This document shows positions 1,230-4,708 of a DNA stretch of 39,017 bases, piece after piece. Positions within the stretch are counted from its first letter, which is position 1, and each line of letters opens with the position of its first letter. Source of the stretch: Candidatus Onthoplasma sp. (GTDB taxonomy: Bacteria; Bacillota; Clostridia; Christensenellales; UBA1242); assembly GCA_045538675.1 (NCBI GenBank), contig JAZSRW010000041.1:1-39017 (forward strand), written 5' to 3'. The translations under genes and the position numbers were made by a program. The notes beneath the pieces were generated by a model, which was given only the letters and a program-made list of their open reading frames with translations, was not told the origin of the DNA and did no database searches.

Positions 1230-1598
1230 TTATTCAACTTTCCACGCATCAGTCAACAACATATCACTACAATCAAAAATGTCTATTATATCTCCACTTA
1301 TTATCGTGCTAATATGTCCGTCCATTCTAACTAAATACACTCCACAGGGATACCTTGTAGCAAATTCGCCAACGGTAAAGCCCTCACAATTAACTCTTTG
1401 GAACTTAAACACATCATCAAGCAAGTGTCGATAACAGCACAAAGTCAATTTAGGACAATTATATAACTTTGAAACGTGAAATAGTTTCTTACGTATTTCT
1501 GGATAACTTATGCCAGTTGCAAGCGAAATAGCACGAGTTACGCAGTCATTTTCCCTATCGCCATCAGGGTTGCGATTATAATAAGTATAATTAGTCAT
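1230..1598 (-). CDS. Small papain-fold-like thiol peptidase candidate (122 aa); the only lysin-like candidate seen
   Basis: Start at internal ATG 1598 after GAAGGGGAAG. It has Cys in ENDCVTRAIS and His in VRMDGHISTIISGDIID, resembling the CHAP/NlpC-P60 Cys...GH pattern. Function is not proven. Confidence 0.5.
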   Translation of the reverse strand: MTNYTYYNRNPDGDRENDCVTRAISLATGISYPEIRKKLFHVSKLYNCPKLTLCCYRHLLDDVFKFQRVNCEGFTVGEFATRYPCGVYLVRMDGHISTIISGDIIDIFDCSDMLLTDAWKVE

Positions 1599-2418
1599 CT
1601 TCCCCTTCAACAATGCAATCGTGGTAAACAGCCAACTTTTCGCCACCCTTAACAGCAACGTCTTTATCTTCCAACCAGTCTTTTGCTAGTCTTACGTATA
1701 AGTCCATATTGCTAGTGCCTAGTGTTTTGCAATAGTCGGTGTACATCATTAAAGTTGTCAATTCAAGTTCTTCTTCACTAAACTTGTCAAAGTTCATACC
1801 CATTTGTCTTGCCTTTTGGCTAATTATTTCCTTTGAGAAGTATTGTTTGTCTTTTTCATCGACCTCTTTCATTAGTTTTTTCTTCCAATGTTCCAATTCT
1901 TCTTTGGTTAGATTTTCGCCATAATCTCCAGCATAGTCATAACGCATATCGTATCCGTAATCCCTACGTCCGCCTCTACGAGCATAATCATAGTCCATAT
2001 AGTAGTTATAATCATAACCCATATCACGACCACGTCCACGACCGCCACGAGCCATATCTTCTCCACCATAATAACCTGTGAAGTAACCCATAGCCTCTAC
2101 TGGACGATACATTTGACTTCTTCCCATATGGTGCATATCACTCATATTCCTAGTATAATCGCTAGCCATATCATATTGTCCGCCACGTTCATAATCTCTG
2201 CGGTTTTCCGCATAGTCTTGTTCGTTATATGCTCTATCGCCACGTCTTGCATTATATTCGTAATCGCCACCACGATAATCTCGTTCATAGTCAGCATAGT
2301 CCATACCTCTATCCCTTCGACCTCTGCGACTAGACACTACATATCCGCCAGCAGAACCATAAGGATTGCGTCCATCTCTACGCATTAAATAATCTCTTAA
2401 TCTTCTATTTCTCGGCAT
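1591..2418 (-). CDS. Protein with R/D/Y/G-rich low-complexity N-terminal region (about 170 aa) and a globular C-terminal domain
   Basis: RBS is AAAGGAGG. There are 14 DY dipeptides plus RGG/RRG runs in the N-terminal part. The C-terminal 100 aa has normal composition (LMMYTDYCKTLG...LAKDWLEDKDVAVKG). Confidence 0.75.
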   Translation of the reverse strand: MPRNRRLRDYLMRRDGRNPYGSAGGYVVSSRRGRRDRGMDYADYERDYRGGDYEYNARRGDRAYNEQDYAENRRDYERGGQYDMASDYTRNMSDMHHMGRSQMYRPVEAMGYFTGYYGGEDMARGGRGRGRDMGYDYNYYMDYDYARRGGRRDYGYDMRYDYAGDYGENLTKEELEHWKKKLMKEVDEKDKQYFSKEIISQKARQMGMNFDKFSEEELELTTLMMYTDYCKTLGTSNMDLYVRLAKDWLEDKDVAVKGGEKLAVYHDCIVEGEDD

Positions 2419-2899
2419 ACTCTACTACCTCCTTTGTTGTTGTTTTTGTTGTTTTTAAAGGTGTTGAGTTTTCCATAACTGAAAAATTCGCAACAGCAGG
2501 TGTTGTAGTTGCTGGCACTGGTAAACTTTCTAGGTTGTTTGTAGGACAAGCACATAAACCGCCCAAAGATTTAAACACCCCGCCAATAGCATTTGTCGAT
2601 ACTTTTGTTGAATATCTTGTACGAGTTCTAATAGCACACGCAGTTACTTGACTACAATCACATCTTACAAATGGATATACAGTAGTTGTATCTCCGCCTA
2701 TACTAAATGCAACTGGTGTTGAAATTGTAGCAGTTGTAGGTATTGTTTGAGCAATTACAATACAATACTTGCAACAATCGTTATAAGCCCTTGCTGGCAA
2801 ATCAATAACTAAAGTATCAACCCCATCAACAGCAACGATTGTAACACTTTGTGATATTATTAAGTTTTTACATAATTTACAACTTGGTTTACAAGCCAT
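2405..2899 (-). CDS. Cys/Thr-rich protein (164 aa, 11 Cys), function unknown
   Basis: RBS is AAAAGGAG. The N-terminus is MACKPSCKLCK, and CC, CxC and CAC clusters are present. No signal peptide is evident. Confidence 0.75.
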   Translation of the reverse strand: MACKPSCKLCKNLIISQSVTIVAVDGVDTLVIDLPARAYNDCCKYCIVIAQTIPTTATISTPVAFSIGGDTTTVYPFVRCDCSQVTACAIRTRTRYSTKVSTNAIGGVFKSLGGLCACPTNNLESLPVPATTTPAVANFSVMENSTPLKTTKTTTKEVVEYAEK

Positions 2900-2919
2900 T
2901 TTTATTTCTCCTTTTACAT

Positions 2920-2956
2920 AAAATCAAACAAGGGCATAGAGAAAACTCCATACCCT
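2920..2956 (-). terminator. Terminator-like hairpin between the two Cys-rich genes
   Basis: The minus-strand RNA AGGGUAUGGAG-UUUU-CUCUAUGCCCU forms 11 bp including 2 G-U pairs, followed by a U-rich tract. Two further small hairpins lie at 2970..3022. Confidence 0.45.
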
Positions 2957-3025
2957 CGTGAAGTATTAAATTTTCTCACTACTTAAAGTAGGAATAATGC
3001 TTAGGACATTTATGTCCTTATCATA

Positions 3026-3754
3026 TTAGCAACAGCCACAGCCAGTGTTATAGTTTACTGGAACACGAGGGTCGCAAGTAATATAAGCAGGAACAGGGCA
3101 GTTTCCGTTTCTCAATTCATCAATGATAAAACGAGATTGTCTATCATTAGAGATTTGAGCCTTTAATCCGCTATTTTCTGCTTGTAGACTAGCAATCTTT
3201 TCGCCAGTTAAGTAATCCAAAATTGCTCTTGTATTGTCTTGACCTGCACGAATTATATCGCAAGTGTTTTTAGCATTTTCGTATTTTACACTATCAATGC
3301 TTCTTTGAGTTGTGCAACAGCAGTCGCTAATTGCTTGTCTAATATCACAGCAACAAGATGCTAATTGTGTTCCAAGAGCATTAAATCCTGCTTGGCTTTG
3401 GTAACCTAGTGTGCAAATTGCATTGTCAACACCAGCAAATCCTTGATTAATAACAGAGTTTAGACCTGCAAATCCTTGATTGTTGTAGTTAATAGCGTTG
3501 GCTTGACCTAGTTTTATATCGTTTAAAGAACTTAAAACTGCACTATTGTTAAATCCTGCAGCCAAGTCTGCTTGAGTTGCAGGAGTGCCACAGAAATTTC
3601 CTCTATTGCCACCGCCAAAGCCAAAACCTCCGTTACCGAAGATACCGCCTACTACAGCAAGACCTATAATCCAAGACCAATCGTTCCAACCGCCATTGTT
3701 ATTGTTGTTACAGCCAGTAGTTACTACTGGTATTTCGCCTTCAAAATAAGCCAT
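3026..3754 (-). CDS. Membrane-anchored Gly/Asn-rich coiled-coil protein with 15 Cys (CCC...CCC, C-terminal GCGCC)
   Basis: RBS is GGAGGAA. One hydrophobic segment, WSWIIGLAVVGGIFG, is flanked by N5 and G-rich runs. Also present are ASCCCDIRQAISDCCCTT, a heptad-like stretch (KIASLQAENSGLKAQI) and the ending NTGCGCC. Confidence 0.8.
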   Translation of the reverse strand: MAYFEGEIPVVTTGCNNNNNGGWNDWSWIIGLAVVGGIFGNGGFGFGGGNRGNFCGTPATQADLAAGFNNSAVLSSLNDIKLGQANAINYNNQGFAGLNSVINQGFAGVDNAICTLGYQSQAGFNALGTQLASCCCDIRQAISDCCCTTQRSIDSVKYENAKNTCDIIRAGQDNTRAILDYLTGEKIASLQAENSGLKAQISNDRQSRFIIDELRNGNCPVPAYITCDPRVPVNYNTGCGCC

Positions 3755-3823
3755 TTAAATTTCCTCCATAAAAATTTATTTATATCAACACCAACATTAC
3801 TCGAGTTTAGCCAGTGGAGATAC

Positions 3824-4066
3824 CTATCTTTTTGCACTTAATATTCGTGCTATTCCTTGTAAGTTTTGTTCACTCACACCATTTTGCCTTGCCATTTGTA
3901 ATATAAATTCCATAGGGCTTCTACCTTGTGCCATATTCTGCATTTGTGATTGCATTTGACCTATAGGTGTTCCTTGTTGCATCATATTTTGCATTATTTG
4001 TTGTGGATTGCCACCACTATCATACATAGCAATTATTCTTTCAATAACAGCATTTAAATCGTTCAT
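3824..4066 (-). CDS. Gln/Met-rich 80-aa protein, function unknown
   Basis: RBS is GGGAGGAA. The sequence includes QQIMQNMMQQGTPIGQMQSQMQNMAQG. Confidence 0.7.
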   Translation of the reverse strand: MNDLNAVIERIIAMYDSGGNPQQIMQNMMQQGTPIGQMQSQMQNMAQGRSPMEFILQMARQNGVSEQNLQGIARILSAKR

Positions 4067-4182
4067 TTATTCCTCCCTAGTTTTAAAAGTATATTATTAA
4101 GTTTGCTATTAATCAGCCTAACTTGTTTCTCTAATTCACTAACTCGTGCTGACAATAATCTTGGTTGCTCTTTATTTTCCAT
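4063..4182 (-). CDS. Small 39-aa coiled-coil ORF (below the track cutoff)
   Basis: ATG 4182 follows AAGGAG. Its TGA overlaps the next ATG (ATGA coupling). Translation: MENKEQPRLLSARVSELEKQVRLINSKLNNILLKLGRNK. Confidence 0.4.
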   Translation of the reverse strand: MENKEQPRLLSARVSELEKQVRLINSKLNNILLKLGRNK

Positions 4183-4708
4183 TAGCGACATCTCCTTGTT
4201 TTCTTTCGCCTTTTAAATACTTTTCGATTACACTTTTTTTTAAATCTTCCATTTGAGCCATTATTTTGCTCTCTAAAGCACTTAAATCATCTGCCTTGAC
4301 AAATATATCAAGTTCGTTTCTTTTTGCGTATTCTTCAAGGTTTATCGTTGGCGTGGGCGGTACATCAATAATCTTTTCATCATCAGTGAAGTGATAAGTC
4401 TTACACCTTGATTGTCCTAGACTATCAGCACTCTTGTCGTAAGCCACACCATTTGCTCTGTCGATTAGCAACACTCTTTGGTTTGGCATAACAATATAGG
4501 CCTTTGCCTCATCTTCGGTTACTAATTTCACCGCTTGTATTGGTATCTCATACACCATTTGTTGTTGTGGTTGCACGTATTGTTGTTGCACTTGTGGTTG
4601 TGCGACTTGTTGCGTTTGCATATACGCATTATTGTTGCCATAAGGCGATATATATTGTGGTTGTCCGCCATTAAAATACGGATTTGTATAATTGTTGTTA
4701 TAAGCCAT
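4172..4708 (-). CDS. Protein with an N/Q/Y/P-rich prion-like N-terminus (about 50 aa) and a globular C-terminal part
   Basis: RBS is AGGGAGGG. The N-terminus reads MAYNNNYTNPYFNGGQPQYISPYGNNNAYMQTQQVAQPQVQQQYVQPQQQ. Confidence 0.75.
   Translation of the reverse strand: MAYNNNYTNPYFNGGQPQYISPYGNNNAYMQTQQVAQPQVQQQYVQPQQQMVYEIPIQAVKLVTEDEAKAYIVMPNQRVLLIDRANGVAYDKSADSLGQSRCKTYHFTDDEKIIDVPPTPTINLEEYAKRNELDIFVKADDLSALESKIMAQMEDLKKSVIEKYLKGERKQGDVANGK

Follow-up and report, generated by a model that had tools for sequence, protein, structure and literature searches.

What does a phage gain from a run of seven back-to-back genes whose proteins are extreme in composition and resemble none of the usual phage proteins? 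The question is raised by a cassette on contig JAZSRW010000041.1 (GenBank assembly GCA_045538675.1, Candidatus Onthoplasma sp., Clostridia), which was analysed at its full length of 39,017 nucleotides (hereafter the window). The whole window represents a phage genome of ~38.9 kb with a GC content of ~32% and all genes on the minus strand; an exact 141-bp direct repeat occupies its two ends (positions 1-141 and 38877-39017), and the genome is therefore most likely complete, and circular or circularly permuted. The cassette forms an accessory operon that is autonomous and moves horizontally between gut Bacillota phages; the hub of the module is p4, the gene for a predicted membrane-anchored protein.

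Layout of the cassette

All seven open reading frames (ORFs) of the original prediction, which had been made from the nucleotide sequence alone, were found, each with a GGAGG-type ribosome-binding site (RBS):

p1, 4172..4708, minus strand: phrog_21718, with a Tyr/Asn/Gln/Pro/Gly-rich low-complexity N-terminus
p2, 4063..4191, minus strand: helical micro-ORF overlapping p1 and p3, starting at 4182 (39 aa) or 4191 (42 aa)
p3, 3824..4066, minus strand: small Gln/Met/Asn-rich helical protein
p4, 3026..3754, minus strand: phrog_16490, putative membrane-anchored Cys-rich hub
p5, 2405..2899, minus strand: Cys-rich predicted all-beta domain with a Thr/Ala/Pro-rich tail
p6, 1591..2418, minus strand: Arg/Asp/Tyr/Gly-rich disordered N-terminal region and a C-terminal DUF7841
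p7, 1230..1598, minus strand: phrog_3754, 122-aa Cys-rich papain-like hydrolase candidate

Gene junctions are tight or overlapping, except those between p3 and p4 (69 nt) and between p4 and p5 (126 nt). The start of p7 is an internal ATG at 1598 within an ORF spanning 1230..1658, and its homologs are likewise ~122 aa long.

Conserved gene order

The window proteins were compared by tblastn with 45 viral loci, which had been seeded with p4 or p6, and the order p4-p5-p6-p7 was recovered in several contigs without any structural genes in common with the window. Iterated family hidden Markov models were then applied to all ORFs of the retrieved loci, and the counts given here refer to the 54 loci with distinct p4 sequences. 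In 44 of these p1 is present, in every case upstream of p4, on the same strand and within 2.5 kb (44/44). A p3 homolog lies between p1 and p4 in 34/54 loci, and p5 was identified in 29/54, always directly downstream of p4 (29/29). Homologs of p7 and p6 occur in 25 and 21 of the 54 loci, respectively, and a helix-turn-helix (HTH) gene similar to m1, the gene preceding the cassette in the window, is found just upstream of p1 in 22/54. Complete p1-p3-p4-p5-p6-p7 sets are encoded by at least 12 loci. Gene order is strongly conserved in other phage genomes, and the homologs are co-located rather than scattered.

No p2 homologs were identified in 56 loci, and a 39-aa gene at the same place occurs only in a near-identical relative of the window phage (L060). 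As p2 lacks homologs beyond very close relatives, the conserved unit comprises six genes and not seven, and p2 is a clade-specific gene outside the conserved module. p4 is the only component that can stand alone, as in L045 and Klebsiella phage P-K7R; the others were found only beside p4 in the examined loci. In crAss-like phage cr1_1, a p6-like ORF is located directly upstream of the p4-like gene.

The families are large, gut metagenomes yielding 6789 (p4), 7129 (p7) and 2269 (p5) clusters at 90% identity. At 50% identity the p5 family contains 265 representatives, almost all of them standalone proteins. All p4, p5 and p7 clusters are labelled 'hypothetical' or are unnamed, and the sole Pfam domain in the cassette is the DUF7841 of p6. 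Metagenome-assembled genomes to which carriers were assigned belong mostly to Clostridia (Christensenellales, Lachnospiraceae). Exact-sequence look-ups of the window p4 and p7 returned nothing, or only contigs of ~1 kb, and a Megablast search of the first 12 kb of the window against GenBank phages gave no match.

Insertion in unrelated phage genomes

The module occupies at least four distinct genomic contexts across unrelated phage backbones, including a crAss-like one. In the clade of the window phage (the window and L060-L063), it lies past the tail genes and ahead of the early genes. The module of Clostridium phage CPD1 is located among early-type genes, ~3.4 kb beyond an amidase-holin pair, while in Butyrivibrio phage Ceridwen it begins right after the lysin and small ORFs. 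Judged from ORF translations, it follows an apparent holin and amidase in L020; in L018 it lies ahead of the terminase, and the p4-like gene of cr1_1 is found near a holin. In Bajarodcaudo virus 2, Dulem virus 35 and three further loci (L064, L065 and L068), the module is placed between portal/minor capsid and scaffold/capsid genes. Carriers include apparently virulent genomes as well as prophage-like contigs. Only lytic growth has been observed for Ceridwen (PMC7372960).

In L064, L065 and L068, which represent one phage group, the head cluster is split between Phage_min_cap2 and Phage_scaffold by a ~7-10-kb island of mostly unannotated genes. The island also encodes YopX, Cys_rich_KTR and DUF551 proteins, and the p7/p1/p4 module is one passenger on it. 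The island of L068 spans ~10 kb and includes three reverse-strand genes.

The GC content of the window phage peaks at the cassette (0.37-0.385 at positions 1001-4000, compared with ~0.32 elsewhere). This is consistent with the amino-acid bias of the encoded proteins and/or with horizontal acquisition.

Compositional bias

The amino-acid biases that had drawn attention to the cassette were confirmed by counting. p4 contains 15 Cys (6.2%) along with 12% Asn and 12.8% Gly, and p5 contains 11 Cys (6.7%) and 15% Thr. Seven Cys were counted in p7, whereas Cys averages 1.6% over the other ORFs of the genome. Gln and Met account for 17.5% and 12.5% of p3, respectively, and 71% of the first 45 residues of p1 are Tyr, Asn, Gln, Pro or Gly. 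The described richness of p6 in Asp-Tyr dipeptides was also borne out, with 15 such dipeptides rather than the reported 14, and Tyr, Arg and Asp each contribute 12% of its residues.

These features extend to the homologs. Median Cys contents of the p4, p5 and p7 families are 4.2%, 6.0% and 6.6%, respectively, compared with a background of 1.8%. Gln, Met and Asn together make up 39% of the p3 family (12% in the background), the first 45 residues of p1 homologs have a median Tyr/Asn/Gln/Pro/Gly content of 56% (23% in the background), and Arg, Asp, Glu, Tyr and Gly constitute 62% of the N-terminal region of the p6 family (29% in the background). The p6 tail contains 20% Arg, 12% Tyr and 19% Asp plus Glu across the family and varies in length from 34 to 183 aa. 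Since the biases are retained among homologs that share 20-40% identity, they are not due to chance, and the composition itself is under selection.

In p1 and p6, a sticker-rich composition is conserved despite sequence divergence. Both tails, Tyr-rich in p1 and Arg/Tyr-rich in p6, conform to the sticker grammar known from proteins that form condensates. The conserved composition, together with features that suggest high expression, is consistent with condensate-forming or self-assembling low-complexity proteins, a possibility that the original prediction had considered. The conserved Cys clusters suggest metal binding or thiol chemistry.

Searches for known families

The cassette had been described as containing no recognisable virion, lysis or replication protein, and searches of Pfam, PHROGs, NCBIfam and PDB profiles are in agreement: only DUF7841 (p6) and PHROGs of unknown function were retrieved. 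Neither profile nor structure searches placed any of the proteins in an ordinary known family such as holins, endolysins, spanins or virion proteins. NCBIfam returned nothing for the cassette, and single-sequence and profile comparisons of p1, p3, p4, p5, p6 and p7 with PDB sequences yielded nothing significant. The searches also covered the products of m1-m3, which are encoded between the tail genes and the cassette (6905-4842, minus strand) and are multi-pass membrane proteins. For p1-p7 and m1-m3, there was no holin, endolysin or spanin match in Pfam, PHROGs or NCBIfam and no PADLOC match at E<=0.01. A literature search on Cys-rich phage and spore-coat themes and on cultured carrier phages found no functional data, and no described system with this composition or architecture was found. 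The nearest analogies resemble the cassette in a single aspect each.

The hub protein p4

p4 consists of an acidic N-tail, a hydrophobic anchor flanked by Trp and Gly, a Gly-rich segment and a predicted amphipathic helix of ~155 aa. The N-flank has a mean charge of -2.2 and almost no Lys or Arg, a charge pattern that suggests an N-out/C-in orientation with the Cys-rich bulk of the protein in the cytoplasm. Hydrophobicity along the ~155 proline-free residues has a period of 3.65 (power 80 compared with a shuffle 95th percentile of 43, family average), and this region is predicted to form an amphipathic helix of the 11/3 type and not a coiled coil with heptads. A CCC motif is invariant in 36/36 sequences, and further conserved motifs include YENAKNTCDII, PxPAYITC(S/N)PY and a C-terminal GCGC(C). 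In the window p4, an 11-residue insertion (residues ~133-143, positions 3326-3358) duplicates the CCC motif (SCCCDIRQAIS-DCCC), a feature shared with L049 and L011 and absent from most family members.

If one borderline window in p5 is disregarded, p4 is the only cassette protein with a hydrophobic segment, and neither a second such segment nor a C-terminal transmembrane (TM) segment was found in p4. The best PDB matches of the p4 profile were influenza HA2 (fusion-peptide end and helix A) and coronavirus HR1, both non-significant (E=0.19-1.5). Weak matches of this kind account for the 'spike protein/glycoprotein' label of p4 homologs in crAss-like records and do not constitute evidence for homology. 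Assignment of p4 as a class-I fusion protein was rejected in view of the E-value of the best match (HA2, E=0.19) and the lack of a C-terminal TM anchor. No holin or spanin Pfam family was matched among 36 p4 family members, with scattered noise only. A bacteriocin-type interpretation, in which a double-glycine leader would be processed by a C39 protease, was likewise discarded: the consensus of such leaders is absent from the N-terminus of p4, and no C39 model is matched by p7.

p7, a candidate papain-like enzyme

The original prediction of a papain-like fold for p7 gained support, and a thiol enzyme is plausible. Cys19, His95 and Asp106 do not vary among 50 sequences with identities as low as 24%, and Arg22 is invariant as well. 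The AlphaFold2 model of p7 is confident (predicted local distance difference test score (pLDDT) of 92.7, predicted TM-score (pTM) of 0.86) and was assessed for topology only, from the positions of secondary-structure elements. In the model, Cys19 is at the N-terminus of helix 19-28, His95 opens strand 95-100 and Asp106 closes strand 103-106. The predicted arrangement corresponds to that of papain-like enzymes, with the order Cys, His, Asp, the Cys at a helix N-terminus and the His and Asp on adjacent strands.

A Foldseek search of the PDB gave no match at E<=0.001, the best being the Tae4 amidase (E=0.9), and p7 and its family members had no significant Pfam or PDB sequence match, with scattered noise only. 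The weak PDB structure matches include the papain-like enzymes Tae4, Ssp1, Josephin-2 (TMq 0.45, E=5.2), PaTox and PLpro. In BFVD, 21 uncharacterised phage proteins from very different hosts matched at E<=1e-3 with TM-scores of up to 0.87, and a Josephin-domain protein matched at E=0.044 (probability 0.92). Going by its modelled fold, p7 is part of a branch of small papain-like proteins that is undescribed, widespread among phages and not confined to the module.

Compared with Tae4/Ssp1, Josephin, NlpC/P60 and C39 enzymes, p7 appears to share the alpha+beta fold, the Cys at the helix N-terminus, the His at the start of a strand and the Asp 11 residues later. It differs in its smaller size (122 aa), its extra Cys residues and the lack of a significant structure or Pfam match to these enzymes.

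p1, p3, p5 and p6

Behind its Tyr/Gln/Asn/Pro/Gly tail, p1 contains a ~55-aa beta-rich core and a short C-terminal coiled coil, and has no PDB or Pfam relative. p3 has NPxQ motifs and a conserved C-terminal half ('SPxEF..AKQxGID'); its PDB matches were designed helical bundles only, none of them significant. p5 encodes a ~125-aa predicted all-beta domain with an invariant C3-x3-C7-x2-C10 pattern and invariant C46, C82 and C88; behind it is a variable tail rich in Thr, Ala and Pro. The CX3CX2C motif possibly binds a metal or an Fe-S cluster. Profile searches detected no PDB or Pfam relative of p5, and Foldseek was uninformative on its AlphaFold2 model, which is poor (pLDDT 49) and derives from a shallow alignment of sequences with 72-95% identity.

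A 308-aa metagenomic protein (P0476) carries a single p5-like domain behind Big_2 (Ig-like) and YARHG domains, and is the sole hint that the p5 fold may occur on surface-exposed or virion-decorating proteins. Other long p5 relatives with terminase or integrase 'fusions' look like gene-calling artefacts and were set aside; only the Big_2 and YARHG fusion may be real.

The C-terminal part of p6 (residues 158-254) is a helical DUF7841 domain (PF25223; 37.9 bits, cut-off 25.2 bits), which is also annotated on the p6 homologs of L060, L061 and L062. DUF7841 has no assigned function, and a literature search found no mention of it. The p6 tail is very variable in length; the conserved DGRNPYGSRGGY motif is often present.

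Control elements and tRNA-Cys

The cassette is accompanied by the following elements:

4803..4835, minus strand: intrinsic-terminator-like hairpin (AAGGATTT/AAATCCTT 8-bp stem, 10-nt loop, T8 tail) that ends the upstream unit
4794..4802, minus strand: extended -10-like box TGcCATAAT, directly past the T-run of the terminator
4730..4787, minus strand: structured 5' leader between the box and the p1 RBS, a two-tier hairpin with outer GUC..GAC and inner GAUAGGGUAG..CUACCCUAUC pairing
2919..2959, minus strand: internal terminator-like putative attenuator (14-bp stem and T-tract) between p4 and p5
1134..1208, minus strand: tRNA-Cys(GCA), the sole tRNA of the genome, immediately 3' of the cassette

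A strong terminator had been predicted at 4803..4835. The hairpin exists, but the attribute 'strong' does not hold, as it is AT-rich, has a 10-nt loop and was not flagged by a consensus scan. A hairpin with a T-run occurs at the same position in seven relatives (L060, L062, L063, L003, L048, L049 and L050). The box that follows is a putative promoter, proposed from its sequence pattern, and TGnTAnAAT-type boxes are found at the same position in relatives (TGCTATAAT in L053, TGCTAAAAT in L003 and L049).

The window and seven diverged relatives share the same layout of terminator hairpin with T-run, -10-type box, GTGTC and two-tier hairpin. The arms of the leader hairpin vary in sequence yet remain complementary, and ten of the 12 pairs of the consensus fold show compensatory double changes. 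When folded individually, the leaders of seven loci were more stable than shuffled sequences (z = -3.2 to -6.0). No Rfam family matches the leader, which, with its conserved GUGUC foot, might stabilise the mRNA or be bound by a regulator.

Unlike the p1-p3 and p5-p6-p7 junctions, which overlap or nearly do so, p4 and p5 are separated by 55-145 nt across loci, and a GC-rich hairpin with a T-tract is located just ahead of the p5 RBS. With a fixed criterion, a hairpin followed by a T-run within 150 nt after p4 was identified in 19 of 25 distinct loci with p5. The corresponding figures are 4 of 23 for loci that lack p5 and 14 of 480 for random windows. A sub-threshold Rfam match to tpke11 (2897-2977, minus strand; 23.3 bits, gathering score 43, E=0.11) coincides with the p4-p5 hairpin and probably reflects just that hairpin. 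T-box and other riboswitches were dismissed for both the leader and the p4-p5 spacer, as there was no other Rfam match.

The flanking tRNA noted in the original prediction is a tRNA-Cys(GCA), and a lone tRNA-Cys directly after p7 is also present in L003, L049, L060 and L061. A role of the tRNA gene as an attachment site is ruled out by the complete genome, in which no scan turned up an integrase. Three large phages (L008, L012 and L014, contigs of 40-142 kb) encode p1-p3-p4 only, with arrays of 9-14 tRNAs, including tRNA-Cys, located a few kb upstream.

In keeping with an autonomous unit, the module has its own terminator and box upstream, as well as internal and downstream terminator-like hairpins. 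Strong RBSs, the 5' hairpin and the conserved tRNA-Cys can be read as a design for high expression. We read the locus as a two-part operon, in which a putative promoter and the leader would drive an abundant first half, the attenuator would lower the yield of the second half, and the tRNA would supply the over-used residue.

Proposed function and alternatives

We propose tentatively, with a probability of about 0.35, that the portable operon builds a p4-anchored, membrane-tethered and self-assembling multiprotein complex inside the host. In the host membrane, p4 would expose its short acidic N-tail to the outside, with the long helix and the Cys clusters at the cytoplasmic face. Excess production of p4 would result from the location of the upstream operon half ahead of the attenuator and from a possible stabilisation of the mRNA by the 5' hairpin. 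p1, with its prion-like tail, beta core and coiled coil, and the Gln/Met-rich helical p3 would assemble with p4 as stoichiometric partners, while the attenuated second half would supply p5, p6 and p7 as sub-stoichiometric maturation or client factors. Among these, p6 would contribute a multivalent Arg/Tyr/Asp tail and DUF7841, and p7, as a papain-like Cys-His-Asp hydrolase, would process or link a component. The product would be a thiol- and aromatic-rich membrane-tethered layer or condensate in the infected cell. It might serve as a membrane site at which replication or assembly is organised, make the envelope weaker for egress or keep other phages out.

Several points weigh against this proposal. 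The promoter, attenuator and topology are predicted from sequence patterns, and interaction and assembly of the proteins are hypothetical. The hydrophobic core of p4 is short (~12-15 residues) with few flanking positive charges, so that the segment may be interfacial or re-entrant, or the topology may be the opposite one. Furthermore, Bacillus, Pseudomonas and Enterococcus phages encode p7-like proteins but not the remainder of the module, and p7 may therefore have a general role of its own. A bolder version, in which the cassette encodes an undescribed, Cys-, Tyr- and Arg-rich phage 'organelle' for replication and assembly or, in phages devoid of classical holin-endolysin genes, for controlled envelope failure, with p4 as the scaffold, p7 in maturation and tRNA-Cys in support, and with a reduced form in crAss-like phages, is possible but doubtful.

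A non-canonical lysis or egress module, in which p4 would act like a large single-TM holin, a spanin or a fusion-type protein and p7 as a peptidoglycan endopeptidase or amidase, would replace lysis genes that appear to be missing. No ORF of the window genome matches an endolysin or holin family in Pfam or PHROGs, and no lysis genes were detected within 20 kb in the close relatives L060, L062 and L063. The clade must lyse its hosts with unrecognised proteins, for which m1-m3, p4 and p7 are candidates. The cassette fills the slot after the tail genes in the window and has holin or lysin genes in its vicinity in CPD1, Ceridwen, L020 and cr1_1. p4 combines an N-terminal hydrophobic segment, a predicted long helix and conserved Cys residues with best PDB profile matches to class-I fusion proteins, and the top PDB matches of p7 are the peptidoglycan amidases Tae4 and Ssp1. 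However, all of these similarities are non-significant (E>=0.19 for p4, E>=0.9 for p7), and CPD1 (amidase and holin) and Ceridwen (lysins) carry canonical lysis genes in addition to the module, the position of which varies to include head-gene and accessory islands and early regions. p7 has neither a signal sequence nor a wall-binding domain, p1, p3, p5 and p6 are without analogue in lysis systems, and the multi-TM proteins m1-m3 offer alternative holin candidates, so that we regard a dedicated lysis function as rather improbable. The module could instead be a moron for superinfection exclusion or host takeover, with p4 as a membrane effector that blocks DNA entry of other phages or interferes with host division or the envelope, and the remaining proteins as accessories. 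Its own promoter-like box and terminators, the diversity of its insertion sites in unrelated backbones, some of them islands of mostly unannotated genes, and its occurrence in apparently virulent and prophage-like contigs would suit this explanation, and a membrane anchor is typical of exclusion proteins. On the other hand, the exclusion systems known to us consist of one or two genes, and a conserved set of six genes that includes an enzyme and low-complexity proteins and comes with its own tRNA would be unusual among them; PADLOC gave no matches and nothing links the proteins to DNA entry, which makes this explanation unlikely.

Packaging of the proteins in the virion and their injection to breach the host membrane would be compatible with the position of the module between portal/minor capsid and scaffold/capsid genes in several phages, with its invariable co-orientation with late genes, with the fusion-peptide-like Gly/Trp hydrophobic segment and long helix of p4, and with the rare p5 relative fused to the surface-type Big_2 and YARHG domains. 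Disordered proteins are also suited to passage through a tail. An ejection function is nevertheless quite improbable: in the clade of the window phage, the cassette forms a transcription unit of its own past a terminator and all tail genes, in CPD1 the module lies among early-type genes, and the 'head' location is a ~10-kb island of mostly unannotated genes, three of them on the reverse strand. The cross-linked extracellular matrix of spore-coat or exosporium type envisaged in the original prediction fared worst and is very unlikely. The parallels are compositional only (the Gln/Tyr-rich p1 tail, the DY-rich p6, the Cys-rich p4 and p5 and the candidate thiol enzyme p7), while Pfam searches at E<=1 gave weak matches only, none of them to a coat-protein, GerQ or transglutaminase family, and p7 has no significant match to a solved enzyme. 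No signal peptides were detected in any cassette protein and the bulk of p4 is predicted to be cytoplasmic, which makes an extracellular cross-linked coat unlikely. Butyrivibrio phage Ceridwen, a crAss-like phage and a Klebsiella phage carry parts of the module, which thus appear not to be limited to spore-forming hosts, as the hosts of these phages are not known to sporulate. Moreover, no lysogeny genes that would allow persistence into sporulation were found in the window phage.

Relation to known systems and significance

Morons, such as lambda bor and lom and the HK97-type morons, are autonomous accessory units, the classical ones comprising one or two genes. The cassette resembles them in its own promoter-like box and terminators, its varied insertion in unrelated genomes and its co-orientation with late genes. 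It differs in its conserved six genes, two-tier operon, structured leader, putative attenuator and tRNA, and in the lack of a characterised protein relative.

p16.7 and p1 of Bacillus phage phi29 have a membrane anchor at the N-terminus and, behind it, a region that forms a coiled coil or self-associates, and they act with partners at the cytoplasmic face of the Gram-positive membrane. The predicted architecture of the cassette p4 is of the same general type as these membrane organisers, but p4 is larger and Cys-rich, has 11/3 periodicity, shares no sequence or profile similarity with them and contains no detected DNA-binding domain. In its single N-terminal hydrophobic segment, long helix and conserved Cys residues, p4 is also comparable to the T4 holin T, i-spanins (Rz) and class-I fusion proteins (HA2), from which it is set apart by E>=0.19, the lack of a C-terminal TM segment and a predicted cytoplasmic C-terminal domain. 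Clostridia hosts, as monoderms, would not need spanins. The likeness to spore coat proteins (CotY/CotZ/ExsY, CotC/CotG, GerQ and Tgl) is one of compositional flavour; no homology was detected, and both the predicted compartment and the host types of the phages differ.

Six co-inherited families lack a name, a solved structure and a role, yet are encoded in a finely regulated operon that is exchanged as a unit, which points to a widespread phage function missing from annotation schemes. The cassette is a good candidate for such an undescribed function, and cultured carriers exist in Clostridium perfringens phages of the CPD1 type and Butyrivibrio phage Ceridwen. A role in membrane organisation or egress, if true, would explain how a clade of ~39-kb phages manages without recognisable lysis genes, and a self-assembling thiol-rich scaffold would represent a new kind of phage-built cellular structure. 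p7 would define a new minimal papain-like branch common across phages.

Genomic neighbourhood

The remaining genes of the window phage are arranged in descending order on the minus strand:

38-30 kb, minus strand: early genes including a DnaD-like replication initiator, where the descending order starts
25808-29850, minus strand: three large genes between the replication genes and a methylase, encoding a 714-aa protein without assigned family, a 386-aa DUF285/BspA-type leucine-rich repeat (LRR) protein and a 240-aa coiled coil
next, minus strand: C5 methylase, large terminase, SPP1-type portal, minor capsid protein 2, scaffold and HK97-fold capsid
next, down to ~8.1 kb, minus strand: connectors, major tail protein, Dit and tail proteins
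after m1-m3, minus strand: the cassette, the tRNA-Cys and a consensus sigma-70 promoter restarting the early region

m1 (4842..5474, minus strand), located directly ahead of the cassette, is a multi-pass membrane protein with hydrophobic windows at residues 75-104 and a C-terminal sigma-70 region-4-like HTH. Residues 159-209 show a weak match to TIGR02937 (sigma70-ECF), and the L062 homolog has a faint match to PF08281 (Sigma70_r4_2). These matches would make m1 a membrane-tethered protein resembling a transcription factor, and it is a candidate regulator and a frequent companion of the module. Other loci have short soluble HTH versions in the place of m1, upstream of the module.

BspA-like LRR proteins are usually surface adhesins, and the position of the LRR gene between methylase and replication genes is odd. 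Just past the tRNA-Cys, a perfect TTGACA-17-TGnTATAAT promoter (1091-1119) is followed by two terminator-like hairpins (945-961 and 814-833) and a second strong promoter (744-772), all on the minus strand. This region looks like the start of the early region, which would wrap around to the right end of the window.

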